Positions 10,385-39,887 of a DNA stretch of 64,000 bases are shown here, in pieces. This stretch comes from a virus. The notes under the pieces are model-generated. The model was not told the DNA's origin, searched no databases, and saw only the letters and a program-made list of their open reading frames with translations. Made by a program: the position numbers and the translations under genes. Location: positions 64,001 to 128,000 of the IMG/VR virus record IMGVR_UViG_3300027754_000045; one strand, written 5' to 3'. Within the stretch, counting starts at the first letter, position 1, and the number at the start of each line of letters is the position of its first letter.

Positions 10385-11023
10385 ATGCAAACACAAGTGA
10401 TTAGTTTTTATAGTGATTTAGAAGGATCGACATATTACAGCGATCATGCAAAGCGGTTAAAAGAAGAGTTGGCACACTTTAGAGTGCCAGCCGATATACG
10501 AGAAAAGCCGTCTCTAGGATCATATCAAAAGAATTGTTTGAGCAAACCTCAATTTATCTACCAAATGCTAGTAGAAAAACAAGAGCCAGTAGTATGGCTA
10601 GACATTGATTCTTATATTCGAAAAACACCAGATATATTTGATCTGTTTACTGGAACAACCGATGTTGCCGTTTCTTGCTCAACAACCAAACTTCATGCAG
10701 CAAAAGCATCTCCAATATATTTGGCATTCAATAGCAAAGTATTAGATTTTCTTCAGCATTGGATGTTTATGGCTCGTCAAATAGAAGCTGGAGGACAATG
10801 GTTTGATCATGAAGCACTAATTGGTATTCTTCAAAAATTTCATGGACAGGAAAACTTTCATATGAAATTTATTGGTCCAGAGTATTGTGTTTGGCCTGGA
10901 GATGAAAACGAAAATACGATAATTCTTATGGGATTAGCGGATGTGGAATCAAAGAAACAATCTTTACGTGAATTAGGATATAATGAGGAACTTATAGCAT
11001 GGCAGAGTCCAGGAACAAAGTAA
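10385..11023 (+). CDS. Putative GT-A fold glycosyltransferase
   Basis: KPQFI...VVWLDIDS DxD motif and WFDHEAL segment as in nucleotide-diphospho-sugar transferases; start at MQTQVISFY. Confidence 0.6.
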   Translation: MQTQVISFYSDLEGSTYYSDHAKRLKEELAHFRVPADIREKPSLGSYQKNCLSKPQFIYQMLVEKQEPVVWLDIDSYIRKTPDIFDLFTGTTDVAVSCSTTKLHAAKASPIYLAFNSKVLDFLQHWMFMARQIEAGGQWFDHEALIGILQKFHGQENFHMKFIGPEYCVWPGDENENTIILMGLADVESKKQSLRELGYNEELIAWQSPGTK

Positions 11024-11862
11024 GAGGCATAGGATTACCGTTTGACCCACAATACTCGTCTTGCTCTAATATAAAACCAAAAGATTTTGATTGGGTTATT
11101 ACAGCAGGCGACTGGAATGTGCATATAGACCAAGGTTTATTAATGCAACCAGATAGTACCCCAAAAGAAAAACGGTTTGGGTGGGTATGCGAATCCAAGT
11201 ATATTGTTCCAGATGTATATTGGCTTTTGACCCATAAACACAAAGAGATGTTTGAAGAATATTATACAAAAATATTCACATGCGATCAAGAATTATTGAA
11301 GTTAGATGAACGATTTGTTTATTGCCCAAACGGAAGTAATTATCCTTGGGTTCCTAAAAACAAATGGGAAGTATACACAAAAACTAAGTTATGTTCTATG
11401 TTTTGTTCTCCCAAACTAATGACCGAAGGGCATGTTTATCGACATCAAATTGCTAGACTAGCTCTACATACTGGGTTTGATGTATTTGGTGGAGCACACG
11501 GAACACCAAGAACCGTAATAGATCCTCAAAATCCATGGAACACTAAAATTGATGGGGTAAAAGATTACAGATTTAGTATTGTTATGGAGAATGGAGTTTA
11601 TGATTCTTACTGGACAGAAAAAGTCACAGATTGTTTTGCTACAGGAACTATACCAATTTACTGGGGAACAAAGAAATTACTTGACTTTTTCAAATCTGAT
11701 GGTATAATACTACTAGAAATTGGAAAAGAACAAGAAATTATGGAATCATTAACTACTGAATTATACGAATCTAAATTAAAAGCAGTAAATGCTAATTTAG
11801 AATTAGTTAAAGATATGAAACTTGCTGATGATATTTTATGGAATCATATTCATGAAAGTTGA
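10999..11862 (+). CDS. GT10 (alpha-1,3/4-fucosyltransferase-like) glycosyltransferase
   Basis: GT10 signature YRFSIVMEN...SYWTEKVTDCFATGTIPIYWG. Confidence 0.85.
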   Translation: MAESRNKVRGIGLPFDPQYSSCSNIKPKDFDWVITAGDWNVHIDQGLLMQPDSTPKEKRFGWVCESKYIVPDVYWLLTHKHKEMFEEYYTKIFTCDQELLKLDERFVYCPNGSNYPWVPKNKWEVYTKTKLCSMFCSPKLMTEGHVYRHQIARLALHTGFDVFGGAHGTPRTVIDPQNPWNTKIDGVKDYRFSIVMENGVYDSYWTEKVTDCFATGTIPIYWGTKKLLDFFKSDGIILLEIGKEQEIMESLTTELYESKLKAVNANLELVKDMKLADDILWNHIHES

Positions 11863-12211
11863 AGTATCAAATGGAGAACTTGTAGATAAATATACTATTT
11901 TATTAATTAAATCAAATAAAATATTAGATTTAATAAAACAAAAAAATATACAATTAGAATTAAAAGAAATAGCTCCACTAATAGAATCTTTAAATTTATC
12001 AAAAACTATTATTGATGAATTATTAGAAACGAATAATATATTATGGGAAATTGAAGAAGTTATTCGTGTAAAAGAAAAAAAACAAGAATTTGATGTGGAA
12101 TTTATTGAATTAGCAAGAAACGTATATAAGACAAATACAATCAGATTTAATCAAAAAACTAAAATTAACATATTAACAGAATCTAAAATAATTGAAGAAA
12201 AATCACATTGA
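11852..12211 (+). CDS. Small conserved protein of glycan loci (DUF6165-like)
   Basis: VSNGELVDKYTILLIK...LWEIEE..R..EKKQEFD.EFIELARNVY..N..R...K pattern. Confidence 0.65.
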   Translation: MKVEVSNGELVDKYTILLIKSNKILDLIKQKNIQLELKEIAPLIESLNLSKTIIDELLETNNILWEIEEVIRVKEKKQEFDVEFIELARNVYKTNTIRFNQKTKINILTESKIIEEKSH

Positions 12212-12951
12212 CAAAATACATTTTAATAGATCAGCCAGCAGGATTAGGTGATATATTTTTTTTACAAAAAGCAGTAAAAAATTTAATAGATTTGGGAAAT
12301 ACAGCTATTTGGCCAGTAATATCCAATTTTAGTTATATCAAAGATTATATACAATATGAAAATTTAATTTTTGTTAATAAAGAAGAAAATTTTTCTTATA
12401 AAGAAATATTTACGGAATGTGAAATTAAACATATACAAAAACCTTTGCTTATAGAAAATTTAAAAGAATCATTAATTTATATTCCATTTATTAGAGCAGA
12501 ATCTCCCCATATGCATGGGATGAAATGTAAATATCCATTAGTACAAAATTCAAGTGATAATTGGCAAAATTATTTTAAATTTGAACGAAATATTAAAAGA
12601 GAATTAGAATTAAAAGAAAAATATAATATTCAAAATGGAGAAGAATTTATTTTTGTAAATGATTTATTTGCTTCTCCACCAGATATGCTAAGAAGAAATA
12701 TAGATATAAAAACAAACAAAAAAATAATATACAATGACGGAGAACCTTGTCATATTTTTGATTATTGTTGGTTATTTGAAAATGCTTCTGAAATTCATAC
12801 AATAGAATCTGCTTTTTGTTATCTAGCTGAAGTGTTAGATACTAATGCAAAACTTTTTATGTATTCCAGAATAATTAATGGACGACCCCAACATAATAAT
12901 TTTGATTATATAGATCACGTTTACAAAAAGAATTGGTTTAAAATACTATGA
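12208..12951 (+). CDS. Putative glycosyltransferase / glycan-locus protein
   Basis: GLGDIFF N-terminal motif and ENASEIHTIESAF, reminiscent of GT-B enzymes; TTG start overlaps the upstream stop. Confidence 0.45.
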   Translation: MTKYILIDQPAGLGDIFFLQKAVKNLIDLGNTAIWPVISNFSYIKDYIQYENLIFVNKEENFSYKEIFTECEIKHIQKPLLIENLKESLIYIPFIRAESPHMHGMKCKYPLVQNSSDNWQNYFKFERNIKRELELKEKYNIQNGEEFIFVNDLFASPPDMLRRNIDIKTNKKIIYNDGEPCHIFDYCWLFENASEIHTIESAFCYLAEVLDTNAKLFMYSRIINGRPQHNNFDYIDHVYKKNWFKIL

Positions 12952-13652
12952 TAAAGTTTAATGACATTACTCTTATTGGTATTGACGGTACTGGAAATGA
13001 TTTTAATATATTAAAATCATTAAAATACAGTAAACAAATATTTCCAAATGCAAAGATTAAATTTTTAACATCTGGTGAACACAAACAAATTGACGAAACA
13101 ATAGAACATATAAAAATTAAAAATTTGAATTATCATGATTTTAGTAAATTTTGTTTAACAGAATGGCACGAACATATTGATACTAAATTTAGTATTAATT
13201 GTCATAATGATGGTTTTGCTGTGAATATACATGCATGGACTGATGAATTTTTAAATTATGATTATATTGGAGCTCCTTGGCCAAGACATAATTTAGAACA
13301 AAGTTCTCAAAGGTGGGAATTAGTCAAAACTGCATATAACAATTCAAATAAATTGTATTGTATTGGAAATGGTGGATTTTCTTTAAGAACAAAAAAATTA
13401 ATGCAGGCAGTAAGTAAATTATATGTAGATGAATATTACGGTATACCAGAAGATTTGGTAATTTGCGTTATATTACGAAAACAATTAGAGGAACAAGGAT
13501 TTAAATTTCCTAATAGTATAGAATTTGCTGGTAAATTTTCTTGCGAAGCACAATTTGTTGATGAATATATATTATCATCGGATAATAGTTTGGGTTTTCA
13601 TTGTGGAGGAACTCATCCTCAAAAAGTAAAATTATTGGAGTCTATATTATGA
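12948..13652 (+). CDS. DUF5672-like putative glycosyltransferase (paralog 1)
   Basis: YDYIGAPW, GNGGFSLR, PEDLVIC, GFH. Confidence 0.75.
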   Translation: MIKFNDITLIGIDGTGNDFNILKSLKYSKQIFPNAKIKFLTSGEHKQIDETIEHIKIKNLNYHDFSKFCLTEWHEHIDTKFSINCHNDGFAVNIHAWTDEFLNYDYIGAPWPRHNLEQSSQRWELVKTAYNNSNKLYCIGNGGFSLRTKKLMQAVSKLYVDEYYGIPEDLVICVILRKQLEEQGFKFPNSIEFAGKFSCEAQFVDEYILSSDNSLGFHCGGTHPQKVKLLESIL

Positions 13653-14644
13653 ATGTTTTAATTACAGGTGTTGCTGGTCTATTGGGTTCTCGTCTTGCTG
13701 ACTGGCTAATAGAAAACAATAAAGCAACTGTTTACGGTATTGATGATCTTTCGGGGGGGTTTATTGAAAATATAAACCCAAAGATAAACTTTTATAAAAT
13801 TAATCTGGTAACCAATAGTGAAAAATTAGAATATATTTTTAAAGAACATAATTTTGATTATATATTTCATTTTGCTGCATATGCTGCAGAAGGTCTAAGT
13901 CCATTTATTCGACAATATAATTACGAAAATAATCTTATTGCAACAACAAAATTAATTAATCTTAGTATTAAATATAATATAAAAAGATTTATATTCACCT
14001 CAACTATGGCAGTATATGGTAATGGAGAAGTTCCATTTAAAGAAACACAACAACAAGCACCTATAGATCCATATGGTATTGCAAAATATGCATGTGAAAT
14101 GGATCTTCGTGTGGCTGGCGAACAACATGGTCTTGATTGGTGTATTTTTAGACCGCATAATGTGTATGGGGCAAAACAGAATATATGGGATAAATATAGA
14201 AATGTTTTAGGTATTTGGATGTATCAACACCTTAATGGTATGCCGTTATCAATTTATGGTGATGGAGAACAAACTAGAGCATTTAGTTATATTGATGATT
14301 GTGTTCCTTATTTTTGGTTAGGTGCAATAGATGATCTTTCCTCAAAACAAATATTTAATATTGGTGGAGACGATCATATTTCTATAAACAATGCTTGTAA
14401 TTTATTATTAGATGTGATAGGATCTGGTAATAAAATTCACTTAGAGCAAAGGCACGAAGTGAAACATGCCTGGGCTACCCACGACAAGATTAAATCTATT
14501 TTGAATTTTAAATCAACTACTCCATTACAGGAGGGTCTTAGTAAAATGTGGGAATGGGCAAAAATACAACCATCCAGAGAAAGAATATTGTGGTCTAAGT
14601 ATGAATTGGAAAAAGGAATTTATAATTATTGGAGATTGAAATAA
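13649..14644 (+). CDS. NAD-dependent NDP-sugar epimerase/dehydratase (extended SDR)
   Basis: TGVAGLLG, YGIAK (YxxxK), RPHNVYG, GDGEQTRAFSYIDD; start at ATG 13649. Confidence 0.9.
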   Translation: MNVLITGVAGLLGSRLADWLIENNKATVYGIDDLSGGFIENINPKINFYKINLVTNSEKLEYIFKEHNFDYIFHFAAYAAEGLSPFIRQYNYENNLIATTKLINLSIKYNIKRFIFTSTMAVYGNGEVPFKETQQQAPIDPYGIAKYACEMDLRVAGEQHGLDWCIFRPHNVYGAKQNIWDKYRNVLGIWMYQHLNGMPLSIYGDGEQTRAFSYIDDCVPYFWLGAIDDLSSKQIFNIGGDDHISINNACNLLLDVIGSGNKIHLEQRHEVKHAWATHDKIKSILNFKSTTPLQEGLSKMWEWAKIQPSRERILWSKYELEKGIYNYWRLK

Positions 14645-14645
14645 T

Positions 14646-15275
14646 ATGGCACAAGGTGTATACAAAATTACAGAAGAATTTGAAGAAAAAGTAGCAAAAT
14701 ACACAGGTTCTCCTTATGCCATTGCTCTTGATAATATGAGTAATGCTTTATTTCTTGCATTATATTACGAAAAGGTTCAAGGTTTAGAGATAACAATACC
14801 ATCAAGAACATATATGTCAGTTCCTTGTGAAATAATTCATGCTGGAGCAAAAGTAAAATTTGAACCAGTAGAAGGAACTAAAATTAAAGGTGCATATCAA
14901 CTTAAACCAACTAAAGTTTGGGATTGTGCTTTACGTTTTACTTCTAAGATGTATGTTCCTAATACACACATGTGTTTATCCTTTACTGGTCCGTATAAGC
15001 ATTTAAAATTAAGTAAGGGTGGAATGATACTTACAGATGACGAAAAGGCATATAATTGGTTTAAACGTGCCAGATTTAGTGGAAGAAACGAGACTTCTTA
15101 TCACGAAGACGCATTTGATATGCTTGGGTGGAACTTTTATATGATGCCAGAAATTGCTGCACGTGGTCTTCTTTTTATGACTCAATTTTATGATATCAAT
15201 GGAACACCAAAGGAAAATGAAGATATTGAATTAGGATATCCAGATTTGTCACAATACAAGATCTATACAAAATGA
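14646..15275 (+). CDS. Short DegT/DnrJ/EryC1/StrS-like PLP sugar aminotransferase
   Basis: FEEKVAKYTG, PSRTYMSV, SFTGPYKHL (PLP lysine), GGMILTDD, GWNFYM; only 209 aa. Confidence 0.75.
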   Translation: MAQGVYKITEEFEEKVAKYTGSPYAIALDNMSNALFLALYYEKVQGLEITIPSRTYMSVPCEIIHAGAKVKFEPVEGTKIKGAYQLKPTKVWDCALRFTSKMYVPNTHMCLSFTGPYKHLKLSKGGMILTDDEKAYNWFKRARFSGRNETSYHEDAFDMLGWNFYMMPEIAARGLLFMTQFYDINGTPKENEDIELGYPDLSQYKIYTK

Positions 15276-15865
15276 AAAAGGCAATAATAGGAAATGGATC
15301 GTTTGCAAAAGAGATTTATTGTTATATTCGAGATAATGGGGATATGTCTGATATAGTTTTTTTTGTAGACGACCAGTATAAAACTGAAAATTGTAAAGGA
15401 TTATCTGAATTTGATCCTGAAAATTATGAAGTGGTTGTAGCAATTGCTAATCCTATAGTAAGAGAACAATTTGTCAATAAGCTTCCAAAAAATACAAAAT
15501 ATTTTACTATGATTCACAAGTCAGCACAATTATTAGATTCAAATATTAAAATTGGAGAAGGAAGTATAATATGTGCAAATGTTGTTTTAACTACCAATAT
15601 AAATTTAGGAAAACATACTCAATTAAATTTATTATCATCAATTGGTCATGATTGTGTAGTTGGTGACTACTTCACTACAGCACCAGGAGCAAAAATATCA
15701 GGGAATTGTTGTATAGGAAATAGAGTGTACATCGGAACAAATGGATCAGTTAAAGAAAAAACAAAAATTTGTGATGATGTAATCGTTGGGTTAAATGGTG
15801 GTGTTGTTAAAGATATAGAAATTCCAGGAACATATGTGGGATGTCCCACCAAAAGGATAAAATGA
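15272..15865 (+). CDS. NeuD/PglD-like sugar acetyltransferase
   Basis: IIGNGSFAKE N-domain, hexapeptide beta-helix, IGHDC catalytic His, YVGCP. Confidence 0.88.
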   Translation: MKKAIIGNGSFAKEIYCYIRDNGDMSDIVFFVDDQYKTENCKGLSEFDPENYEVVVAIANPIVREQFVNKLPKNTKYFTMIHKSAQLLDSNIKIGEGSIICANVVLTTNINLGKHTQLNLLSSIGHDCVVGDYFTTAPGAKISGNCCIGNRVYIGTNGSVKEKTKICDDVIVGLNGGVVKDIEIPGTYVGCPTKRIK

Positions 15866-16608
15866 TACATATATATTTTCGTCATTATAATGTTGGGGGA
15901 GATGATAATTCTTCTAGGCAAGATGGTCGTTATAAAGCACGATCTGCTCGTCGTTGGGGAAACGTGGATAGTTGGTTTAGTTATGAAAAGGTATTTCTTA
16001 ATCTACTCAGTACTACTGCTGGAACTAATGTAAAAATTAATGTTATGATGGATGGTGTTATTGAGGAAAATTGGATAGCAAAATATAAAGATAAATTTAC
16101 AGGATATCAATTTGAAGGTGGAACTGATGGATTATCGTTTCATTCAACTTTGAGTATTATTAAAAACGATACATCAATTCAACCTAATGATATAGTCTAT
16201 CTTTTGGAAAATGATTATCTTCATGTAGATGGGTGGGTTCGTAAAGTAGAAGAATTATTTGAAATGTATAATAATAATGTAAGCTATGTTTCTCTGTACG
16301 ATCATCTTGATAAATACATCTATGATCATTATTCGCATTTAAGAGAAAAAATTATTATAAGCAAAACTCACCACTGGAGAACTACTCCCAGCACAACAGG
16401 AACATTTATGTTAACTAAAAAGATTTTTGATGAAGATTATGATACACATTCAACACGAATGGATGATCATGCTAAGTTTGTATGGTTACAAGAAAACAGA
16501 CAAAGATTTTTATTAACACCTATTCCTGGATTATCAACACATTGTGTTGGAGAATGTTCTCCTACTATAGATTGGCAAGCAATTAGTGATAAAGAAATAA
16601 TATTATGA
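15862..16608 (+). CDS. Putative GT-A glycosyltransferase
   Basis: DIVYLLENDYLH, YVSLYDHLDKY, HWRTTPSTTGTF, PIPGLSTH; glycan-cluster context. Confidence 0.55.
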   Translation: MIHIYFRHYNVGGDDNSSRQDGRYKARSARRWGNVDSWFSYEKVFLNLLSTTAGTNVKINVMMDGVIEENWIAKYKDKFTGYQFEGGTDGLSFHSTLSIIKNDTSIQPNDIVYLLENDYLHVDGWVRKVEELFEMYNNNVSYVSLYDHLDKYIYDHYSHLREKIIISKTHHWRTTPSTTGTFMLTKKIFDEDYDTHSTRMDDHAKFVWLQENRQRFLLTPIPGLSTHCVGECSPTIDWQAISDKEIIL

Positions 16609-17216
16609 ATTCAGTTGAACAATCATATCAGTTGTTAGTGGAAAGTTCATCGGATATAAATGAACATTTGCCGACATTAAAACGATATGCAGAGGAATGT
16701 GATCATATTACTGAAATGGGTGTAAGGTGGGTTGTTTCTACATTTGCCTTTGCTGTTGCAAAACCAAAGACATTTGTGTCTATTGATATCATAGATCCTC
16801 GTAGTGATTTTGAAAATTGGAATTCTGTTTGGGGATCTGGAGAACGGCTGAATAACATAATTAAATATTGTGCTGAAAATAATGTAAATTATTCATTTTT
16901 GTTAAGTGATACCACAAAAATCACTATTGATGAAACTGATTTGTTGTTTATTGATACATTACATGAATATAATCAAATTAAAACAGAATTAAAATTACAC
17001 GGAAACAAGGCAAAAAAATATCTAATATTTCATGATACTGAAAATTTTAAATTTAGAGACGAAAGAACCCCAGACGTATATGGGTTATCAAGCAAAGATA
17101 AACTTGGAATATGGTCTGCCATTGAGGAATTTTTAATAGAAAATCCACATTGGAAGATTCATGAATTATTTACTAATTGTAATGGTCTTACTATCCTGAA
17201 ACGAGTTAATGTATGA
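16605..17216 (+). CDS. Class I SAM-dependent methyltransferase (Methyltransf_24-like)
   Basis: SDINEHL, ITEMGVR, DLLFIDTLHEY, IFHDT, NCNGLTIL. Confidence 0.8.
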   Translation: MNSVEQSYQLLVESSSDINEHLPTLKRYAEECDHITEMGVRWVVSTFAFAVAKPKTFVSIDIIDPRSDFENWNSVWGSGERLNNIIKYCAENNVNYSFLLSDTTKITIDETDLLFIDTLHEYNQIKTELKLHGNKAKKYLIFHDTENFKFRDERTPDVYGLSSKDKLGIWSAIEEFLIENPHWKIHELFTNCNGLTILKRVNV

Positions 17217-31600: not shown

Positions 31601-33194
31601 TACTGCTCCTAGTCGCCATTACGCAATTAATATTTTGTTAGGACTATCTGGTGGAGCGTTTCACGACGAGAAAAACCTTACTCTTAATACCACTATTGAT
31701 GCGGCAGTTAAAAAGAGAGATAACTTTACTATATTATTTCAAGAGGACGTTACAGTACAACAAGAAAATAAATTTAATGCACTAGGAGCAAAGAAATATT
31801 ACATAAACTCTAGAGGACTTTCTGCAGGTAGTTGGAATTTATCCCAATCAAACATAGATGCAGCTGTTGCATATTTAAAAGGAGATCTTAATGAACAAGG
31901 AAGTATGGTATTTGGTAGAGGCATAACTGCAACCAGTAAATCTTTTATATTTTTAGATTTTGAATCAACGTATGATCCTATGACTAAATCAGGAGGACCT
32001 ACTGTAGATGTCATGTTAGTTGATGGTCATACAGGACCAAATGGTTTTACAGGACCAGACGATCTTAGTTTTGATCAAACTTTACTAGATGGTCGAATAT
32101 TTGGTCAAACCTGTGCAAATAAATATTTTTATGAATGGATTGAAGGTGGAACGTCAAATAACGGCACAACATTCCACGGATTACGACATTATTTTCCAGG
32201 ATGCAGTTTTGGTAATTACGGACCACATTGGTGGTGGGGAAATAGCCAATGGTTTGGAAAAACTGATGCACAAATTGACGCACAACTAGAAATAGCCGCA
32301 AATACTCTTGTGGCTGGTTGTTCTGCTGCTTTTAAGGCATTTGATATATTTTCTCCTAGTGTTTATTCTAATGTTAATACCAGAAAATTAACCAGATGGA
32401 ATAATGCACAAAATGTAAGATTGTATAAAAAAATTAATACAATAATGGGTACCAATAAACCAATTATGCCTTGGGTTACTCCAACGTATTGGCATAATGG
32501 TACTGGTACTCCTTATACCACAGGCAACGCACCAGATGGTTATACAGGTTTCGAAGCTCAATATACTCCACCATGGACAATACTTCTAGATACTGACATT
32601 GTTTATGAAAATGCAGAACCTCTGATAGCCGAAGGAGCCGATGGAGTAATGATTTGGGGTAGTCCAGAATATAGAAGCATTCAAATACTTGGTCGTCCTG
32701 GTTGTTCGGATTGTAGTGAATTTTCGTTAATTGGTTTCGAGGGACGTACTGCGCAAGCTGTTGACGGAAAATATCAACAATGGCCATTAGATAAAGCAAC
32801 AACTCCAGGTGCAAGTCCTACTGGAATAACATTAAACGAATGGTCTTTCTTTACAGGTCAACGCCAAGCAATTTCTGCTCACGAGAACTATATAAAAGGC
32901 AGAGATATGGGTGTTACTGGTAATCGTTGGTGGTGGAAAGAAATTTCAGGTTCTACAGCGTATACACCACCAGAATGGGGAAATTTAAACACCAATCTTC
33001 AATGGAATGATGCAAATATTACTACTGGTACTACTGGTGCAGAAATAATTACAAGAACCTATAGAGATACTTTTTATAATATGGCAAAAGTAATTAAAGA
33101 ATCATACGGAACAAAAGATCAATGGATCTCTGGAATGACTGGACCAATTAAAGGTCTTACTGGTAACAGAAGAGTTAATGGAGTACAACAATAA
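25653..33194 (+). CDS. Giant virion protein: 10 IPT/TIG repeats + heparinase II/III-like lyase region + GH56-like barrel
   Basis: PTITSIxPxSG..GGT repeats; GYWTEGWGY, DCGHISAYLGDAALLIETG, GHNVMQLG; FIFLDFE, FSPSVY, GADGVMIWGS. Confidence 0.75.
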   Translation: MKLKIRELLNKVLFFNKPQENITKLKIIEQVKFNTVSVNTDFFANDFFNFLPTITSIAPTSGLVAGGTSFTITGTNLTGTSSVTVGGVAATSVAVVSGTSVTAVTPAGTAGVKSVVLTTPGGTATASSAFTYIGVPTITTINPSTGVLAGGTPFTIGGTNLLNTSSVTVGGVAATSVTIVSSTSVTAVTPVGTAGVKNIVLTTPGGTVTFSSAFEYTDIAVFPTITIIAPISGVLAGGTTFGITGTNLSDTSSVTIGGVTATSLTNVSSVFVTARTPAGATIGLKNIALTTPIGTAISANAFTYIGLPTITSIAPTSGVLAGGTTFGITGTNLSNTSSVTVGGVTATSLTNVSDTSVTARTPAGVTTGLKNITLITPGGTTTAPNAFTYIGLPTITEITPNSGPVSTETTVNIDGTNLSGTSSVTVGGVAATNLNIFSPFSVGCDFPVGTIGAKNVVLTTPGGITTALNAFTYIGVPTITSISPTSGVVAGGTTITITGTNLSDTTIVTIDGVEVTSFTNVSSTSVTVVTPAGATIGAKNIVLTNFGGTVTAPNVFTYIGLPTITSIAPASGVLAGGTTLGITGTNLSGTSSVTVGGVTATSLTNVSSVFVTARTPTGAIIGVKNIVLTTPGGITTALNAFTYIGVPTITTINPNTGILAGGTSFTIAGTNLSNTSSVTVGGVAATNVTTLSGTSVTAVTPAGSAGLKNIVLTNPGGTVTASNAFEYTDITIIPTITSISPTSGVLAGGTTLGITGTNLSNTTSVKVDGVTATSLTNVSSVFVTAVTPAGATIGLKNITLNTTLGGVTSVNAFTYIGLPTITSIAPISGVLTGGTTFGITGTNLSDTSSVTVGGVTATSLTNVSSVFVTAVTPAGATTGAKNIVLTTPGGITTALNAFTYTDFNLDFARIQVLADTRISDLWVLDTTKAKPVGVVAGKFYAQSGIDRSQGGYTSAPNGRLTKWAQPLFYTPRSMADVIKGTTAISGLCASLTYNKFGILKNLNYFYGGQTSGSEGSVNMSRLLRLKEGITGGKNVIKRPYSFNDIKTFGLSAGHTLFGNINSDKTVTAVAIAYNNPNSWSLKRNMLLSSLSQIDEWQSYRVLNYLTPLAISWRFQKEIRQNSIGFSNNVSQISESELNAVNTDTLNHLKILLDEYKDHYPLARPNNGVNNTLGSNQTWRGEATSGYPMGLCGSFGVRTSPYPLGATLDFIPALGVNGTTLDTWSPQGWTADTGMYLFDGWGMRYILENMIYLDGVTSVIEPVTTTTQLKADSSWNNILIEVKKLMLKEIFDYVIHTEEGRAWYAKRKYWPDGSERDSLIYADSNPNRIWTEQATGLTGIKYYYNHYFNGTGYWYPEPDNKGYVGTNQNITPMAYRMLATMYLYPYMTLDKERTALLSAYNMMAEECASVLERFLMGVTSSQENSAGYWTEGWGYAAQSMPDFLKILTSMKTMGDRRLWDKKSTPDYFNKTIPGISYSSWTNNTWKWIVSRIMPNNLIINSGSCNSSGWETIGNSYQFTPWGVYLTAVNASESPTPGTTGSAISELHDWFDNNAGYEEEIEYFYNVRKYQERNTYNEKINTPWFYSPGDCIVTWKSEHVIPKFQSDWTYGNNTERPDGKPGYVVNNFNKPLIFGLWAKGVGVSDEKTNVDCGHISAYLGDAALLIETGEPRQLLEFDNDKTNNYFYERETFRVKGHNVMQLGERLDYKNPKYAPWTGVTFTATGGSAFLNATSNYNVRPLKISTPQPLGDNRPNPKDGGFPTWAESDPAWDNVSDGFLYLAGTTQIANTRGGDTAQYLAQSSNILGGSETIDGRAGQYVFEPYQYQIKTCTRGITWEYSAGVAKIRIQDIVGISAFNNNPSFWSATGPYATGPDTRVYYRFHTGYTGANDIAGNPSSTSWPFFTTTDAGLTFFSVSGTNNKTWQAAWTQPIPYNTMAYDGVVSRLDSVGVTMTFVGSQPIKLTKELSVNHSFKYSSVTKPGIGITAPSRHYAINILLGLSGGAFHDEKNLTLNTTIDAAVKKRDNFTILFQEDVTVQQENKFNALGAKKYYINSRGLSAGSWNLSQSNIDAAVAYLKGDLNEQGSMVFGRGITATSKSFIFLDFESTYDPMTKSGGPTVDVMLVDGHTGPNGFTGPDDLSFDQTLLDGRIFGQTCANKYFYEWIEGGTSNNGTTFHGLRHYFPGCSFGNYGPHWWWGNSQWFGKTDAQIDAQLEIAANTLVAGCSAAFKAFDIFSPSVYSNVNTRKLTRWNNAQNVRLYKKINTIMGTNKPIMPWVTPTYWHNGTGTPYTTGNAPDGYTGFEAQYTPPWTILLDTDIVYENAEPLIAEGADGVMIWGSPEYRSIQILGRPGCSDCSEFSLIGFEGRTAQAVDGKYQQWPLDKATTPGASPTGITLNEWSFFTGQRQAISAHENYIKGRDMGVTGNRWWWKEISGSTAYTPPEWGNLNTNLQWNDANITTGTTGAEIITRTYRDTFYNMAKVIKESYGTKDQWISGMTGPIKGLTGNRRVNGVQQ
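25806..28355 (+). repeat. Ten tandem ~250-nt IPT/TIG domain repeats
   Basis: Units begin cctacaataaca (PTIT) and end (A/V)F(T/E)Y; high nucleotide similarity between units. Confidence 0.92.
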
Positions 33195-33445: not shown

Positions 33446-34711
33446 ATGAAACGTTTTTATAATTATTTTCAGTCTACTGAAACTCCTCCAGGATATGTGG
33501 AAGGACAGTATTCTTACGGATCTAGTTTTGTACTGAGTGAATCTTGGCATGATTACGCTCAAGGATCCGAATTTACTCTAACAGACAATGATGTTCCTGA
33601 TCGTGTTTATCGCCACGGAGTCGGTGTGGCTGCAGGACAGTTTCGTGACAGCAAAGGAAACGTGGTAGCGGTTACAGGAAACAGAAACGAATTACATAAT
33701 TTGTTTCAGTATCGCCCTCAAGAACAAACCCAATACCCAGAACCACAAACCAGAATAGAACGAGAGATTGTTCGAGAAACTGGTATTCCTGGACCCAAAG
33801 GAGAGAAGGGTGAAGACGGATGGGCTGGTCCCCAAGGAGAGCGAGGTCCTCGTGGAGATGATGGCCTTCAGGGTGTTCGGGGTCTACAGGGCATTCAGGG
33901 AGATCAGGGTCCTCAAGGGCTAGGCGGAGAACAGGGTGATATTGGTCCTCAAGGAATACAAGGCGACCAGGGTTCTCAAGGAATACAAGGACCACAGGGT
34001 GTTCAGGGAGATCAGGGTCCTCAGGGGCTGGGAGGAGAACAGGGTGCTATTGGACCTCAAGGCGAACAGGGTACACAGGGAGAACGGGGTATTCCAGGCA
34101 TTCAGGGCAAGGACGGCTCACAGGGCATTCAGGGGCTTCCTGGAGCCTCTGGCAAGGATGGTAAGGACGGCAAAACAGGTAAATCTGGACCTCGTGGAGC
34201 CCAAGGAACTCAAGGCAAGGCAGGTCCAAAAGGTGATCAGGGAGTAAAGGGAGATCAGGGTCCGATTGGTCCAGAAGGTGCTCAAGGAGCCATAGGAGAA
34301 TCGCCAATATTAACTGCCCAGTATCCTTTGGTATTAGAGGATAATGAACTAACCTTTGATCCCAAGAAAATACAAGAATTTTTATCTGGTTTAATTAAGA
34401 GCAAAAGTGACGCTGATCGAGTCTCCCATAACATGGGACTGATGGCTAGTTCTGGTGGTGGTGCAGTCGGCATCTATAAGGATAAAGCCAGAATTATTAA
34501 ATCAGTAAATGATATTAATTTTATTGGTAATAATATTGTGGTAACTCGCAAAGGCAAACAAGTTGATGTGAGTGTTACTGGAGGAGCAGCAGGAGGAGCA
34601 TTCTACGAATCCGCTACTAGTCCTATAGCTACTTTAATAGACGGAGATCGTTGGTGGAATACTAATACAGGTAGACTATATACTTGGATTGGAATTTGGG
34701 TTGAAATTTAA
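33446..34711 (+). CDS. Collagen-like fibre protein
   Basis: 58 uninterrupted Gly-X-Y triplets; C-terminal GDRWWNTNTGRLY...WVEI module. Confidence 0.85.
   Translation: MKRFYNYFQSTETPPGYVEGQYSYGSSFVLSESWHDYAQGSEFTLTDNDVPDRVYRHGVGVAAGQFRDSKGNVVAVTGNRNELHNLFQYRPQEQTQYPEPQTRIEREIVRETGIPGPKGEKGEDGWAGPQGERGPRGDDGLQGVRGLQGIQGDQGPQGLGGEQGDIGPQGIQGDQGSQGIQGPQGVQGDQGPQGLGGEQGAIGPQGEQGTQGERGIPGIQGKDGSQGIQGLPGASGKDGKDGKTGKSGPRGAQGTQGKAGPKGDQGVKGDQGPIGPEGAQGAIGESPILTAQYPLVLEDNELTFDPKKIQEFLSGLIKSKSDADRVSHNMGLMASSGGGAVGIYKDKARIIKSVNDINFIGNNIVVTRKGKQVDVSVTGGAAGGAFYESATSPIATLIDGDRWWNTNTGRLYTWIGIWVEI
33782..34303 (+). repeat. Gly-X-Y collagen repeat with internal duplication
   Basis: GDQGPQGLGGEQG(D/A)IGPQG occurs twice; locally GC-rich. 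Confidence 0.9.
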
Positions 34712-34726: not shown

Positions 34727-37700
34727 ATGCCAATAGAATTTACTCCTAATCCTAACGAAGGCGACCTCTACAACTACCTTGATTCAACGTGGTTTTGGAA
34801 CGGTGTTGCTTGGGATAAGGTAGATGCCACGATTACTGCGGGTGGTGCAAATGTATTCACCGCACTCAACAGATTCAGTGCAGGTATCTCTGCTTCGGGT
34901 GCAACATTCTCAGGAAACATCTCAGCACCATGTTTCAAAACCTTCACATCGGGAGTTAATGTTGATTTGAATCTGAATGTACAAGATTTGGTTGGTCTTG
35001 AAGGCGCAAAGATATCCTTTTATGGAGTAGACAGTGGTGATCCTGGTGCTACAGGGTATGGAGTTGTATTTGGTGCAAACGGAACATCGGCTATTCCATT
35101 TAGAATAACTGATTATATTGATGGCACTAATTATTTTCAGATTGATGCTAACAAAATCATTACAATAGGAGATGTTGATGGTGTTTATGGTGGCACTAAT
35201 TTATCAATAAATAATACGACTCAAACTATCGCCGTTACTGGTAGACTGACTGCATCGGGTGCAACATTCTCAGGAAATATCTCTGCACCAAACATTGTAA
35301 ACTCATGGAATGGTGCAACAGGTGCAGTGACATTCACCAACTATGTGACATCATTCAACGGCAAGACAGGTGCGGTGAGTGGTGCATCTCTTGGCGCAAA
35401 CACATTCACTGGACTCAACACATTCAATGCGGGTATTGGTGCATCAGGTGCTTCTTTTACTGGAACTGTTACTGTTCCTACACCAACCAATCTTACAGAT
35501 GCAGCAAATAAAAGTTATGTGGATTCTCTAGCATCAGGAATTAATTGGCATCAAGCAGTAACTGCATTGAGTGATGTTCAATCTGCAAGCACATATGTTG
35601 CAGGAACTGTGGGTTATGATGGAGGAACAGGTGTTGGTGCGTATATTGAAGCAAACGCAAACGGAGCATTGACTGCTGTGGATAGTGTGAATGTTGTAGT
35701 TGGCAATCGTCTTTTAATGATAGGCAGAACAAATACAATAGAAAATGGAATCTACACAATTACAAGTGTAGGTAGTGTTGGAACTAAATGGAGAATTACT
35801 CGTGCCACCGATATGGATGGTCATGATGCTGCATCTGCAATTATTGCAGGTGATGCTGTGTATGTTACAAGCGGAACAGATCATGGTGGATTGGCATGGA
35901 TTGAAACAGGCACAGGCACAGGCACAGGCGGTATTCACATCATTGGAACTGATGGAATTGTATGGACACAATTCACAGGAACAGCAACATTCACTGCGGG
36001 TGCGGGTCTCACCGCAAACGGCAGAATCATTGATGTGAATGTGGACAACTCAACCGTTGAAATTTCATCTGATATATTGCGAGTAAAAGACAGCGGAATA
36101 ACAAACGCAAAACTTGCAAACTCTAATATCACAGTCACTGCAGGAAACGGACTAGCAGGTGGCGGTTCGGTGGCATTAGGCAGTAGTGTGACCTTGACCA
36201 ACGCAGGAGTCACTGCTGCTGTGGCAGGAACAGGTATTTCGGTTAGTGGAGCCACTGGTTCTGTTACAATTACGAACACAGGCGTTCAATCATTCAACGG
36301 CAGGACAGGTGCGGTTCAAGGCGTGTCTGCTGCTGTGGCAGGAACAGGGATTTCTATCTCTGGTGCAACAGGCTCGGTTACAATTACAAACACAGGCGTT
36401 CAATCATTCAACGGTCTTACAGGTGCGGTGACAGGAGTAGCATCCGTGAACGGCAGCACAGGCGCAGTGGTTACCTATGTGGGAACAACAGGCAATATTC
36501 CTTACCGATACGGCGCAGGAGTTGGAATCACTGCAAACAGTTACTTTACTCTACAGAATACTGATATTGGTATGCCCACAGACATATTGATTCTTTCTGG
36601 TGCAACAACTGATGGTATAGAATATAGTATAGCATATGGAAACCAAGAAGCGATGGGACTAGAATTTCATCGAGCATATGCTGGACTAGGACTAGACGAA
36701 AGCGGTGGAGCCGCCATTGTGGCAAAGGGTATCTTTAATGATGGTGGTCCATTTAACTATGGAAGTAGTTTGTGGTTAGTGACTCCTTCTATTGGTGGTG
36801 GTACAATACGCCTTGCTCCTCAAGGATATGAAGTTGTTCAGGTTAGTGCGGGTAATATGAATATTAATGGATCATTAACCACCTCCTCAACAGCAACTAT
36901 CGCAGACACACTCACGGTAAGCAGTGGTGGTGGTGGTGCAGTGTTGGAGTGGGACGGCAGTCTACCTATACCAACAGTTCTCACTGTTTACGACAGCGGA
37001 ACCCCAGCAAACACCTTGACCTTGAAAGGTGATGGCACATTCTCCCAACTTACCACAAGCGGAACAATTAGTGGTGCAACAGGCGCATTCTCAAAACTGT
37101 TGACTTTGAGTGGCGGTCTTTCTGCTTCTGGCGCAACATTCGCTGGCGATATAGCCGTGAACGGTGTTCTTATTGGTCGTGGTGCAGGCAGTGTGACAAC
37201 AAATACGGTTCTTGGCGCAGGTGCTGGAGCAGCCAATACGACTGGAGCAAACAATATTTTTGTGGGATCTGCAGCAGGTGATGCGGTCACGACAGGCGCA
37301 AGAAATATTGCGATTGGATCTGATGCATTGGGTGCAGGTGTCACAACTGATTCTTGCGTTGCGATTGGATACAATGCTCTTCTGTTAAACAGAGGCAATT
37401 ATAATATTGCTATTGGTGATTCTGCATTAGATGCAAGCACCACGGGGTTTAGTAATCTTGCTATTGGAAATGATGCTTTGGGCTCATTAAACTCTGGTTC
37501 GTACAACATGTCACTTGGTTCTTCTTTACGAGCAGTAACAACTGGTCAAAATAATGTTGCAGTAGGACAATCAGCAGCAGTAACTATAACAACTGGAGTT
37601 AACAACATTGCCATTGGAACATTTGCTTTATATCAAGCAAATACATCTTCGAGTAGTAATACTGCAATCGGAAATCAAGCAGGCGGCGCAGCAAATGCTT

Positions 37701-38149
37701 CTGCAACCGTTCAAAATAATAATACATTTATTGGTGCGTCATCAGCACGAAGCATTACAACAGGCAGTCAGAATGTTGGAATCGGAATGGAATCAATTTA
37801 CGGTATTACTGGTTCTTCTAACAACACAGCACTTGGATATCAGGCTGGCAGATACACAGCCAATGGCACAACCGAACTGACCGTAACTGCTAACTCTCTA
37901 TATCTTGGATACGGAGTTCGTGGATCTACTAATTCTGTAACCAACGAAACGGCTATTGGTTATCAAGCCGTTGGTCTTGGATCCAACACCACGGTGATTG
38001 GAAACTCTAGCACAACAGCCACCACGATCTACGGAGTCTTGAATGCTCCTGGTGGTATCTCATTGTCTGCTGGTATCACATTCACAGACGGAACATATCA
38101 AACATCAAAAACACCAGACTTTTTACTTTTCAGTATGGGAATCATCTAA
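34727..38149 (+). CDS. Tail fibre / receptor-binding protein
   Basis: DAANKSYVD, ENGIYT...WRITRATDMD, VxSFNGxTGAV repeats, C-terminal NxAIGxxAL beta-roll repeats of trimeric adhesin type. Confidence 0.85.
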   Translation: MPIEFTPNPNEGDLYNYLDSTWFWNGVAWDKVDATITAGGANVFTALNRFSAGISASGATFSGNISAPCFKTFTSGVNVDLNLNVQDLVGLEGAKISFYGVDSGDPGATGYGVVFGANGTSAIPFRITDYIDGTNYFQIDANKIITIGDVDGVYGGTNLSINNTTQTIAVTGRLTASGATFSGNISAPNIVNSWNGATGAVTFTNYVTSFNGKTGAVSGASLGANTFTGLNTFNAGIGASGASFTGTVTVPTPTNLTDAANKSYVDSLASGINWHQAVTALSDVQSASTYVAGTVGYDGGTGVGAYIEANANGALTAVDSVNVVVGNRLLMIGRTNTIENGIYTITSVGSVGTKWRITRATDMDGHDAASAIIAGDAVYVTSGTDHGGLAWIETGTGTGTGGIHIIGTDGIVWTQFTGTATFTAGAGLTANGRIIDVNVDNSTVEISSDILRVKDSGITNAKLANSNITVTAGNGLAGGGSVALGSSVTLTNAGVTAAVAGTGISVSGATGSVTITNTGVQSFNGRTGAVQGVSAAVAGTGISISGATGSVTITNTGVQSFNGLTGAVTGVASVNGSTGAVVTYVGTTGNIPYRYGAGVGITANSYFTLQNTDIGMPTDILILSGATTDGIEYSIAYGNQEAMGLEFHRAYAGLGLDESGGAAIVAKGIFNDGGPFNYGSSLWLVTPSIGGGTIRLAPQGYEVVQVSAGNMNINGSLTTSSTATIADTLTVSSGGGGAVLEWDGSLPIPTVLTVYDSGTPANTLTLKGDGTFSQLTTSGTISGATGAFSKLLTLSGGLSASGATFAGDIAVNGVLIGRGAGSVTTNTVLGAGAGAANTTGANNIFVGSAAGDAVTTGARNIAIGSDALGAGVTTDSCVAIGYNALLLNRGNYNIAIGDSALDASTTGFSNLAIGNDALGSLNSGSYNMSLGSSLRAVTTGQNNVAVGQSAAVTITTGVNNIAIGTFALYQANTSSSSNTAIGNQAGGAANASATVQNNNTFIGASSARSITTGSQNVGIGMESIYGITGSSNNTALGYQAGRYTANGTTELTVTANSLYLGYGVRGSTNSVTNETAIGYQAVGLGSNTTVIGNSSTTATTIYGVLNAPGGISLSAGITFTDGTYQTSKTPDFLLFSMGII
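36213..36430 (+). repeat. 114-nt tandem duplication in tail fibre
   Basis: ctgctgctgtggcaggaacagg at 36213 and 36327; AAVAGTGISxSGATGSVTITNTGVQSFNGxTGAV twice. Confidence 0.88.
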
Positions 38150-38173: not shown

Positions 38174-38602
38174 ATGGCAACTTCAGCACAATATGTCACA
38201 ACACCAGTTTTAGAAATCATGCAGGGTATAACCGCAGACACATCCAGAACTGCACCTACTGCAGCAAACACTTACTTGGTTTGTCAGGGTCCAGCAACCG
38301 CTTCGGGTTCAGGTGTTGGAAAACGAATCACAAGAGTCACTGTTTCTGCCACAGGAACCACCACTGCAGGCGTTATTCGGTTTTGGATCAGTGTGGACAC
38401 AGGAACAACAAAGCGATTAATTCTAGAAAAAATTGTTGCCGCCAATACTCCAAGTACAAGCAATCCCGTTGTTCGTTTTGATGTACCTGAATTGGTTGGT
38501 CTTGTGCTTCCAGGAACAGTTGCTTCGGCGGTGACAAGTCTTTACGCAACCACAAACAACACAGAAACATTCAACTTTTTAGTTGAAAGTGGAACTCTAT
38601 GA
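38174..38602 (+). CDS. Fibre-associated virion protein
   Basis: AGGAG RBS and AATAAATA upstream; beta-rich T/A/G composition; follows the fibre gene. Confidence 0.55.
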   Translation: MATSAQYVTTPVLEIMQGITADTSRTAPTAANTYLVCQGPATASGSGVGKRITRVTVSATGTTTAGVIRFWISVDTGTTKRLILEKIVAANTPSTSNPVVRFDVPELVGLVLPGTVASAVTSLYATTNNTETFNFLVESGTL

Positions 38603-39273
38603 ATCAAGGTATATTTGGATTACCTCCAAACAATAAGATTGGTTACGATACTCCCGCTCTTTTGCATCCGTTAGCATATGTGGATGTTATGAATAGTTCT
38701 GCAAATGGAACAAGTCAGACTCTTTATTATATGCCGTATGGGTTTCAAGCAACAGGATCCACAGTAACTATTGCTGCAAATACCCTATATTTCAATGCAT
38801 TTTGGATTGGTAAACCTGCCGTTGTAAAATATATTTCAATACGAAGTGCTGTCCCAACCGTCGCAGGTAACTTAAAATTTTCTTTTTATGATTCCGAGTC
38901 TACCACAGGACTACCAAACAAATTATTATTTTCCTCTGTTAGCGTTGCTCGTGCTGCTGGTTACGGATACACCACAGTATATACTGCTCATGTGTTAAAA
39001 ATAGATAAGCCTGGATTTTATTGGACAGGTATTGTTTTTGATGCAGCAATAGATAATTTGGAAAGATTCAGTGGAAGTGGAGCAAATCCATTCCCTTCAT
39101 CAGGAACACTTGGAAATTATCAAGGCTACGGAGTGTCTACTCCTCTAACATTTGGTGATCCTCCATCTTCTTGCGAAGGAGTAAAATTTAGTTTATTAGA
39201 TAGTGGCTCAACACCATTGACTCAATTAGTCATGACCTCACAACTTCAAAATATCACAGTTCTGAAAGGATAA
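38599..39273 (+). CDS. Hypothetical virion protein
   Basis: Coupled (ATGA) to previous gene; beta-rich. Confidence 0.5.
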   Translation: MNQGIFGLPPNNKIGYDTPALLHPLAYVDVMNSSANGTSQTLYYMPYGFQATGSTVTIAANTLYFNAFWIGKPAVVKYISIRSAVPTVAGNLKFSFYDSESTTGLPNKLLFSSVSVARAAGYGYTTVYTAHVLKIDKPGFYWTGIVFDAAIDNLERFSGSGANPFPSSGTLGNYQGYGVSTPLTFGDPPSSCEGVKFSLLDSGSTPLTQLVMTSQLQNITVLKG

Positions 39274-39276
39274 TAT

Positions 39277-39609
39277 ATGAAATTTTCCACACAACACATT
39301 TATTATCCTGACGGAACTCTAGAAATCATTGATGATCGTGTTTTTGAAGACTGCAAAACATTTCATCTGGAACGAATCAAAAAATCAGCCACGGAGCGAA
39401 TACTTGAATTGGCACCTGAATATAAACAAAGAAACGCCGCTCTTGGTTTACTAACGCAAGGAGAAACAGATGCCATAAAGTCCACAATTCAAACCATAAG
39501 GAATGCTGTAAACTCTGCAGAACAACAGATTCTTTCCGTGGTTTGGAATGGCACAGAACAAACTCGTGCTGCCGCCTGTGACGCTGTGCAGGCAGTTCGT
39601 TGCGAATAA
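39277..39609 (+). CDS. Putative tail-fibre chaperone-like protein
   Basis: ERILELAPEYKQRNAALG...IRNAVN..E; position at the end of the fibre cassette. Confidence 0.45.
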   Translation: MKFSTQHIYYPDGTLEIIDDRVFEDCKTFHLERIKKSATERILELAPEYKQRNAALGLLTQGETDAIKSTIQTIRNAVNSAEQQILSVVWNGTEQTRAAACDAVQAVRCE

Positions 39610-39626
39610 GTCTCCTATATACTACC

Positions 39627-39887
39627 ATGAGCACAGAATACACAGCAGAAGATACAGCAGGACACATTCAAGGATTACAGGATGTGGCGAATCTGATTCA
39701 GATCATTATTGCAGGAAACTATCCTGCGAATACTATTAATCCTGAATCGCCCACCACTCTTATGGGGCGACAGACTGGACATATTCGCATCATGCTTGCG
39801 ATGCCCCATATTCAAGCATCGGGTGTGGATCTGAGCTCATTTGAAACCGCTGCCGATGACGGTGAAGCCTGGGCAAATTCTCAATAA
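39627..39887 (+). CDS. Small hypothetical protein
   Basis: MSTEYTAED...; ATG 5 nt after CTATATA, a late-promoter-like element. Confidence 0.55.
   Translation: MSTEYTAEDTAGHIQGLQDVANLIQIIIAGNYPANTINPESPTTLMGRQTGHIRIMLAMPHIQASGVDLSSFETAADDGEAWANSQ

Follow-up and report, generated by a model that had tools for sequence, protein, structure and literature searches.

A conserved SunS-like glycosyltransferase next to a hypervariable sugar cassette in aquatic T4-like phages: a candidate system for glycosylating virion proteins

Which molecule does a T4-like phage modify when it carries a sugar pathway of its own: the envelope of the infected cell, its DNA or its own particle? We address this question for a locus between regA and gp43 in a 64,000-nucleotide stretch of DNA (hereafter the window; bases 64001-128000 of the 153,850-bp IMG/VR contig IMGVR_UViG_3300027754_000045, a T4-like phage estimated to be about 85% complete). 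Islands of sugar genes have been recognised for about twenty years in T4-like phages from the sea and from fresh water, where they usually go by the name of auxiliary ‘LPS’ (lipopolysaccharide) genes and are presumed to alter the host surface. In the window, a variable island ends at a gene that we term GT2-TPR (23983..25227; all genes of the window given here lie on the plus strand), which is followed by fibre-type genes. We favour, tentatively and with slightly less than even confidence, a cytoplasmic system in two parts, encoded by the phage, that would glycosylate the phage’s own late (virion) proteins. This reading is supported by the relatedness of GT2-TPR, the placement of late-promoter motifs, the linkage to virion genes and the soluble nature of the island enzymes. 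The original prediction had likewise proposed that the phage builds its own glycan on virion proteins; the protein-type glycosyltransferase (GT), its frequent late promoter and the lack of membrane machinery support this in part, while no acceptor is pinpointed and the Ser/Thr-rich neighbours are no specific evidence for it.

GT2-TPR is the last gene of its block, has a GC content of 0.44, like the structural genes, and encodes 414 residues with a Pfam Glycos_transf_2 match (48.5 bits, cut-off 23.3) followed by TPRs. As a single sequence searched against the PDB, it finds GmaR (5e-9), ThuS (6e-8) and SunS (9e-6); a profile of its family finds the same enzymes (GmaR 1e-15, SunS 8e-11, ThuS 2e-9), with the next GT2 proteins, chondroitin synthase and TarS, at 1e-3. 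The top NCBIfam match is the SunS-family S-glycosyltransferase model TIGR04195 (42.4 bits, E 4e-11, residues 2-95). Since the score lies far under the curated equivalog cut-off of that model (42 vs 350 bits), GT2-TPR is a distant SunS relative and not a member. An AlphaFold2 (AF2) model with a predicted local distance difference test score (pLDDT) of 88 comprises a GT-A domain (residues 1-165) and eleven helices at residues 178-392. The TPR matches are individually weak (best TPR_12, E 4e-6, under the cut-off), and the helical repeat domain of the model agrees with them. In Foldseek searches, the model aligns with SunS/ThuS at E 1e-14 over 393-400 columns and with TarS, TarP and RmlT at 1e-7 to 1e-6. 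The grouping of GT2-TPR with protein and peptide glycosyltransferases, and not with polysaccharide GT2 enzymes, is supported by sequence and predicted fold, which agrees with the significance originally attached to its GT2-plus-TPR architecture. The DTGSxD (residues 35-40), DADD (89-92) and HE motifs are invariant in 38 diverse homologues, and the TPR region is strongly conserved too; from the invariant catalytic motifs, GT2-TPR is predicted to be an active enzyme. A hydropathy scan found no hydrophobic segment in it.

Residues 375-414 of GT2-TPR (window 25108-25227) form a predicted disordered tail rich in Gln, Glu and Lys, which varies in length among relatives; its end is nearly always a basic FK-x-RK motif. 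A role of the tail in targeting to membranes, nucleic acids or particles is conceivable. The closest homologue from a cultured phage, 37% identical and annotated as a ‘beta-1,4-glycosyltransferase’, is encoded by the Tunturi_5 jumbo phage of Tunturiibacter (PP885688.1 37023-38126; locus L089), between a nucleotide-metabolism/replication block and a convergent tail-fibre cluster, a junction as ambiguous as that occupied by GT2-TPR in the present lineage. A tblastn search with GT2-TPR gave no match in any cultured cyanophage or pelagiphage record.

The best relatives, the Listeria flagellin O-linked N-acetylglucosamine (O-GlcNAc) transferase GmaR and the enzymes SunS/ThuS (PDB 22ao, 7msn, 7msp, 7msk), share the two-domain layout and are cytoplasmic enzymes that glycosylate proteins or peptides from nucleotide sugars, with no lipid carrier. 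They differ in that structural alignments give only 15-18% identity to GT2-TPR, and the phage encodes no glycocin-like precursor peptide or flagellin; the neighbour of GT2-TPR, p136, is a 136-residue tail-tip-type beta-sandwich, not a helical bacteriocin precursor. A second parallel is SgtA of Clostridioides difficile, a GT-A enzyme with TPRs that is encoded next to its substrate and adds the initiating O-GlcNAc to Thr of BclA3, a collagen-like fibre protein of the spore exosporium (PMC7157674). SgtA, at 358 aa, also has an N-terminal GT-A domain followed by C-terminal TPRs, is soluble, lies immediately upstream of a surface fibre-type gene and adds an initiating sugar that further transferases extend, a likeness of layout and description rather than of direct sequence comparison. 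Its substrate differs, being a Gly-Pro-Thr collagen repeat on a spore, whereas the collagen fibre of the phage carries Gly-x-Gln and Gly-x-Lys triplets. In FlmG, a TPR domain binds the flagellin substrate in a soluble, lipid-free pathway (PMC7591256). The features of cytoplasmic protein O-glycosylation present here are a soluble transferase with a repeat domain and a locus in which no lipid carrier, flippase or oligosaccharyltransferase was found.

A scan of viral contigs with GT2-TPR yielded at least 126 related loci, of which 80 were kept for comparison and the window proteins mapped onto them. GT2-TPR is present in 80 of 80 by construction of the search, with 53-97% identity, and is, judged from sequence, a lineage-core gene. 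The common backbone consists of regA, a variable sugar island, GT2-TPR, p136, variable fibre genes, a dUTPase-like gene, DUF1599 and, after 0-7 kb, gp43; p136 follows GT2-TPR in about 56-61 of the 80 loci. The left anchor of this backbone in the window is regA (9972..10382; Pfam Translat_reg 3e-39), kept in 26 related loci, and the right anchor consists of the DUF1599 gene and the gp43 DNA polymerase gene (39968..43020), kept in 52 and 37 loci, respectively. Within the right anchor, gp43 occupies 40447-43020 (Pfam DNA_pol_B), and the DUF1599 match is weak (4.7e-4, under the curated cut-off). The polymerase is 47% identical to the enzymes of cyanomyoviruses, the nearest cultured relatives. Near-identical DNA in public runs comes almost only from freshwater, lake and river metagenomes, with one run covering most of the stretch; no RNA runs with the stretch were listed among them.

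Among the relatives, the island ranges from 0 (in an island-less clade) to more than 10 kb, and many islands fill more than the 10 kb of upstream flank that was taken. Its families there include nucleotidyltransferases, full-length DegT aminotransferases, GT2 and GT47 enzymes, C- and other methyltransferases and HAD phosphatases, all soluble. The island is a hypervariable, swappable cassette with very fast turnover on a constant backbone: two loci (L003 and L004) whose GT2-TPR proteins are 99% identical have no island gene family in common in the last 8 kb. In all loci that have an island and extend far enough to show regA, the island occupies the stretch from regA to immediately before GT2-TPR, co-directionally and with gaps of 15-45 nt. 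As a separate observation, relatives carry between GT2-TPR and gp43 genes for a dUTPase/dCTP-deaminase-like protein, Cpn10, S-adenosylmethionine decarboxylase, an N6/N4 DNA methylase, a UvdE UV-endonuclease and a destabilase-type lysozyme (L047 9874-10416, L060 12168-12434, L056 12422-12799, L073 4132-5070, L038 12812-13744, L024 18337-18723); the window has none of these at that position.

When the genes are transcribed can be approached through their upstream motifs. The genes of this phage for baseplate wedge, fibre, head-tail adaptor, portal, scaffold and sheath-like proteins have the T4-type late motif NATAAATA at a distance of 2-22 nt upstream, a placement that validates it, as a sequence signal, as a late-promoter motif. 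Across the 80 relatives, a late motif lies no more than 32 nt ahead of the start codon in 33 of 80 GT2-TPR genes (41%), 9 of 54 p136 genes (17%), 17 of 651 island ORFs (open reading frames; 3%) and 1 of 353 ORFs on the DUF1599-to-gp43 (replication) side (0.3%). Before GT2-TPR, it is found in several different upstream sequence contexts. In the window, TATAAATA stands at 33434, 4 nt upstream of the ATG of the collagen fibre gene, and at 34714, 5 nt upstream of the gene for a 1140-aa protein; a late motif also lies 18 nt upstream of the first of four small ORFs (38174, 142 aa). The island carries a perfect sigma-70-type promoter (19301..19328, plus strand; TTGACA-16 nt-TATAAT, 12/12) in its only intergenic gap, where the ATG of the GDP-mannose 3,5-epimerase gene follows 27 nt downstream. 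This promoter suggests that the second half of the island is transcribed early, as a unit. In relatives, the dUTPase-like gene likewise has strong sigma-70-like promoters in front of it. The picture that these motifs would give is of a late unit (GT2-TPR, p136 and the fibres) set between early-type units. Early expression of the island may fit the build-up of a sugar pool before virion proteins appear and the remodelling of the host surface equally well.

A side observation concerns the spacing of the late motif. In several late genes only 2-7 nt separate the end of TATAAATA from the start codon, too few for a normal leader or ribosome-binding site (window 33434-33441 and 34714-34721; genome 76, 676, 43164, 55186 and 132167), and in other late genes the spacing is 14-22 nt, with GGAG. 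There may be two classes of late transcript, one possibly leaderless.

The late virion genes that had been expected directly after the island are there, with TIG, collagen-fibre and tail-spike-type matches and the late motif before 33446, 34727 and 38174. GT2-TPR, p136 and the giant fibre gene lie 15 nt apart or overlap. The p136 protein (25243..25653; 136 aa; phrog_1084) is modelled as a small Ig-like beta-sandwich (AF2 pLDDT 90) with a central Gly/Thr/Ser-rich loop of variable length. In Foldseek searches, it comes closest to chains from the tail tip of T5 and the baseplate of DT57C that are 137-140 aa long (8hqz, 7qg9; template modelling (TM) score 0.57-0.61; E 7e-6 to 4e-5), with generic Ig domains close behind (6e-5 to 4e-4). 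Against Pfam PF23926 (T5 p132 / LtfC-like collar), it reaches 19.3 bits, with a cut-off of 27, over residues 3-34 only. From its modelled fold, p136 is a probable fibre-anchor or collar-type small virion protein. The start of the following ORF overlaps the p136 stop by one base, and from this layout p136 is predicted to be translationally coupled to the giant fibre-like ORF, here and in the island-less clade. The giant ORF (25653..33194) encodes 2513 aa with ten IPT/TIG repeats (Pfam TIG 9e-107, 10 stretches) and 33% Ser+Thr in the array. It is followed by a collagen-repeat tail fibre (33446..34711; Pfam Collagen 3e-27; PHROG tail fibre families), a 1140-aa structural or tail-spike-like protein (34727..38149; phrog_6002, phrog_23837, phrog_4636) and four small ORFs of 142, 224, 110 and 95 aa without family matches (38174..39887).

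Gly-x-Thr was considered as a glycosylation sequon and dropped. The motif occurs 77 times in the 2513-aa protein, against 38 expected (z 8); the excess is also seen in several structural proteins elsewhere, and it partly reflects a Gly-Gly-Thr triplet that recurs in each TIG repeat. No such signal is present in the collagen fibre, and the 1140-aa protein has no Gly-x-Thr motif. A complex prediction for GT2-TPR with p136, made with two alignments, scored 0.00 and was counted neither for nor against an interaction.

The island, taken as the ORFs upstream of GT2-TPR, measures 13.6 kb here (10385-23967). With GT2-TPR, it forms a run of 17 co-directional ORFs between regA and gp43 (10385-25227), mostly overlapping by 1-4 nt or spaced by 1-15 nt, with a single 55-bp gap; a few of the longest-ORF calls run into their neighbours by as much as 50 nt. 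Sugar-pathway or transferase domains are found in 11 of the 17. The 16 consecutive glycan-locus genes of the original prediction are real as a layout; five ORFs have no informative match. The run opens with two ORFs of core-like GC (0.34-0.36; 10385..11862), a 212-aa ORF without a match (10385-11023) and a GT10-like transferase (10999-11862; Pfam Glyco_transf_10 2e-07). An AT-rich variable cassette of 14 ORFs follows (11822..23967; GC 0.20-0.31), whose content is replaced wholesale in close relatives. Its order is DUF6165 (11822-12211), an ORF without a match (12208-12951), DUF5672 (12948-13652), a UDP-hexose 4-epimerase-like short-chain dehydrogenase/reductase (SDR; 13649-14644; PDB 4zrm, 5e-49), a short DegT-like ORF (14646-15275), a PglD-like acetyltransferase (15272-15865), two further ORFs without a match (15841-16608 and 16605-17216) and a second DUF5672 (17213-17941). 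It continues with Methyltransf_24 (17895-18494), GT17 (18496-19299), GDP-mannose 3,5-epimerase (19355-20473; 9e-95 to the plant enzyme), a GT4-like ORF (20473-21348; ESM Atlas TM score 0.73-0.75, a lead only) and an 871-aa fusion of an SDR with an NDP-hexose 3-C-methyltransferase (21352-23967; TylC3/TcaB9, 2e-68).

The five ORFs without an informative match in Pfam, NCBIfam, PHROGs or the PDB are those at 10385-11023, 12208-12951, 15841-16608 and 16605-17216, for which NCBIfam gave nothing at all, and DUF6165, which has no informative match to a function. Ten island proteins are without a PHROGs match, phmmer against the PDB found nothing for the second DUF5672 protein or the ORFs at 16605-17216 and 15841-16608, and a literature search on DUF5672 gave nothing useful. 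ORFs without a family match were for that reason not counted as transferases. The count of at least five GT-like genes therefore stands only when the GT4-like and DUF5672 genes are included, and the suggested nine are not confirmed.

Several island proteins deserve comment in their own right. The DegT-like ORF is 209 aa long, compared with 360-440 aa in normal family members, and gives no convincing alignment to a full-length island aminotransferase; it may be what is left of a truncated gene or else a minimal form of the enzyme. Read by eye from fragments, it has a possible Ser-Phe...Lys that resembles a pyridoxal-phosphate-lysine site. The GDP-mannose 3,5-epimerase and the GT10-like gene, of a fucosyltransferase family, hint at transfer of L-galactose or L-gulose, which would be unusual sugar chemistry for a phage. 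In a megablast search of the island against cultured phages, the sole match, at 71%, was the C-methyltransferase fusion in an unannotated 642-kb metagenomic phage. The match covers 2.5 kb of DNA (window 21357-23864) in the ‘huge phage’ LR756502.1, where a distant homologue of GT2-TPR is encoded as well; Pfam has no match for residues 310-450 of the fusion. For two island proteins, the nearest ESM Atlas clusters consist almost entirely of viral members.

On the reading that we favour, GT2-TPR, as a soluble GT-A enzyme with a C-terminal TPR-like domain, would perform the priming step, moving the first sugar from a nucleotide sugar to Ser, Thr or Cys of a phage structural protein, much as SgtA, GmaR and SunS act on proteins encoded alongside them. 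We infer that the island feeds this primer. Its AT-rich cassette would supply GDP-L-galactose or GDP-L-gulose made from GDP-mannose, a putative 3-C-methyl-6-deoxyhexose and possibly an N-acetylated amino sugar. Soluble transferases (GT10-like, GT17 and GT4-like) would extend the primer into a lineage-specific glycan, which the one recognised methyltransferase may methylate. No lipid carrier, flippase or polymerase would be needed, and the starting nucleotide sugars would come from the host. Candidate acceptors are p136 with its Ig-like fold, the TIG stalk of the 2513-aa fibre, which is rich in Thr and Ser, or some other conserved protein of the virion.

A number of observations weigh against this reading. 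No acceptor protein is pinpointed among the candidates, and the adjacent Thr/Ser-rich proteins do not stand out as the marked targets that had been proposed. Their Ser/Thr fraction is 0.20-0.27, but 0.10 in the collagen fibre, and baseplate and fibre proteins elsewhere in the genome reach 0.21-0.25, so this richness is ordinary for the structural proteins of the phage. The collagen fibre, built on its Gly-x-Gln and Gly-x-Lys triplets, has only one Gly-x-Thr. In the window and its five closest relatives, no late motif lies within 32 nt of GT2-TPR, the only one in the window being at -96. Given its sigma-70-type promoter and few late motifs, the island is not clearly co-regulated with the virion genes and may instead be expressed early, to some other end. 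In the island-less clade, GT2-TPR stands alone between regA, which it follows at 40-55 bp in most members, and the dUTPase-like gene, with no adjacent fibre genes; DUF1599, Cpn10, S-adenosylmethionine decarboxylase and DNA methylase genes and then gp43 follow. This clade keeps two tandem p136 paralogues that overlap the start of a 2272-aa ORF (L097 5878-13588, genome G004) about 12 kb upstream of GT2-TPR. The p136 gene and the giant-protein gene are therefore a conserved pair that is usually but not always beside GT2-TPR, and the adjacency of GT2-TPR to fibre genes is common, not obligatory. Finally, island content and p136 type recombine independently, as seen in L003 and L004 and in a second pair (L005 and L006) that has most island families in common and p136 proteins just 55% identical; once backbone relatedness is taken into account, the two show no coupling.

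These points bear differently on the other uses to which such a locus could be put. The island, with or without GT2-TPR, could remodel the envelope glycan of the infected cell: its soluble enzymes would produce new nucleotide sugars and attach them to undecaprenyl-linked O-antigen, capsule or core intermediates of the host at the inner membrane face, and host flippases and ligases would export the products, blocking superinfection or keeping progeny off infected cells and debris. We consider this unlikely, though a serious contender. It is the published reading of GT-rich, fibre-containing islands in pelagimyophages and cyanomyophages (PMC7029224, PMC12801897), a further point against a role on the virion. 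The hypervariable islands of pelagimyophages (the host-recognition HRC; PMC7029224) and of cyanophages P-SSM2 and S-SCSM2R (PMC12801897) combine many GTs and NDP-sugar enzymes with tail-fibre genes, and host O-chain modification is favoured for them in both papers. Their place is in the structural region, flanked by the VrlC gene and gp14, whereas the island here is flanked by regA and gp43. The sigma-70-type promoter and scarce late motifs would fit early expression, the extremely fast turnover on a constant backbone is like that of bacterial O-antigen loci, and the low GC of the island resembles that of cellular glycan loci. Set against this is the membrane machinery. Known serotype-converting phages use membrane proteins such as the Gtr and Oac types. 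Hydropathy scans found no ORF with more than two hydrophobic 19-aa segments in the whole 153.8-kb contig, and just 1 with at least two such segments among 693 island ORFs of the 80 related loci; Gtr/Oac-type polytopic proteins (GtrA flippase, GtrC-type transferase, Oac acetyltransferase) did not turn up in these scans. No flippase, polymerase, ligase, Gtr-/Oac-type protein or priming phosphoglycosyltransferase occurs in the contig or the 693 ORFs, so the absence of exporters, lipid-carrier enzymes and transmembrane (TM) segments first noted for the locus extends to the whole contig and to the islands of relatives, and envelope remodelling fails to explain this lack throughout 80 islands. The further step, to a cytoplasmic rather than an LPS pathway, holds as far as no membrane machinery is encoded, but peripheral enzymes without TM segments also act on lipid-linked glycans, including undecaprenyl-linked ones. 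The one lineage-conserved transferase is moreover of the protein/peptide type, often late and joined to virion genes, and the near-wholly viral Atlas clusters argue for a phage-resident gene pool, not recent capture from a host locus.

It is also conceivable, if rather improbable in our judgement, that the two parts have separate functions, with GT2-TPR adding a single host-derived sugar to a phage (possibly host) protein and the island being an unrelated passenger in the same recombination hot spot, serving for example host-surface or storage glycan metabolism. The existence of GT2-TPR without an island in one clade, the difference in GC (0.44 vs 0.20-0.31), the different promoter types (late motif before GT2-TPR, sigma-70-type within the island) and the independent recombination of the island and the neighbouring genes would all agree with such a split. 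Yet the island is contiguous and co-directional with GT2-TPR wherever it is present and regA is in view; several transferases without an encoded acceptor of their own need a primed substrate, for which GT2-TPR is the only candidate primer in the locus; and a conserved primer with variable extension genes is also known from flagellin and spore-fibre systems (PMC7157674 in part). Glycosylation of phage DNA at hydroxylated or hydroxymethylated bases, in the T4, RB69 or TET-linked manner and as an evasion of restriction, is a natural thought, since T4-like phages are the classic DNA glycosylators, but we regard it as highly improbable here. In its favour, GT2-TPR is flanked in the island-less clade by dUTPase/dCTP-deaminase-like, DUF1599 (‘nucleotide modification associated’), DNA methylase and gp43 genes, and its Tunturi_5 homologue lies beside thymidylate synthase, dCMP deaminase and dUTPase genes. 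DNA glycosylation, however, needs a hydroxylated base from a ThyA homologue or from a C5-methylase plus TET, and the known DNA GT-A enzymes resemble TarP and JGT and have ThyA or TET neighbours (bioRxiv 10.1101/2023.12.21.572611; PMC13326640). These known precursor enzymes for the acceptor base were not found: thymidylate synthase (ThyA, PF00303) is absent from the contig and five large relatives, including one genome that is complete and has terminal repeats, and C5-cytosine methylase (PF00145) from the contig and four of the large relatives, with working controls in both searches; Tet/JBP (PF12851) gave no match in the contig or the five relatives in a search without a positive control. TarP is the relative that the DNA GT-A enzymes have in the PDB, and GT2-TPR is closer to SunS/ThuS than to TarP by 7-8 orders of magnitude. 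Late transcription in many relatives fits virion proteins, though some DNA glycosylation is also late.

Glycosylation of the phage’s own virion proteins, the reading that we prefer, has counterparts in other viruses. Freeman et al. reportedly described in 2023 (Cell Host Microbe; cited in PMC12619734 and PMC12801897) mycobacteriophage-encoded glycosyltransferases and, in some phages, methyltransferases that act in the cytoplasm on the phages’ own structural proteins. In those phages, capsid and tail-tube subunits are modified at their C-termini and the genes belong to actinobacterial siphoviruses, whereas the present case is a T4-like myovirus of freshwater bacteria with a conserved TPR-type primer, an island with its own nucleotide-sugar chemistry and fibre-type neighbours. 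The capsid glycans of chloroviruses and the fibril glycans of Mimivirus are made by virus-encoded soluble pathways for rare, methylated or acetylated sugars together with transferases, in clade-specific clusters and with no host membrane machinery. Those giant viruses differ in their eukaryotic hosts, their unrelated structural proteins and the lack of a SunS-like priming enzyme.

A broader proposal, which we advance with more reserve, is that a large, uncultured aquatic T4-like clade coats its tail fibres or collar with rapidly exchanged, lineage-specific glycans by means of a conserved SgtA/SunS-like primer and a hypervariable cassette. As part of that same doubtful but possible scheme, the cassette would be the phage counterpart of a bacterial O-antigen locus, under diversifying selection, and the ‘LPS genes’ of aquatic myoviruses, long a puzzle, would serve the virion and not the host surface. 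Our reading thus offers an alternative to the ‘LPS gene’ view of these islands, as a variant of known systems that glycosylate virions or surface fibres. If it is true, a soluble primer with exchangeable extension cassettes would provide a toolbox for lipid-free protein glyco-engineering, and glycosylation of the virion, so far demonstrated in mycobacteriophages, would also be a trait of abundant myoviruses whose hosts are presumably Gram-negative. In lakes and oceans, the particles would then bear strain-specific coats of glycan, with possible effects on adsorption, stability, grazing and aggregation.

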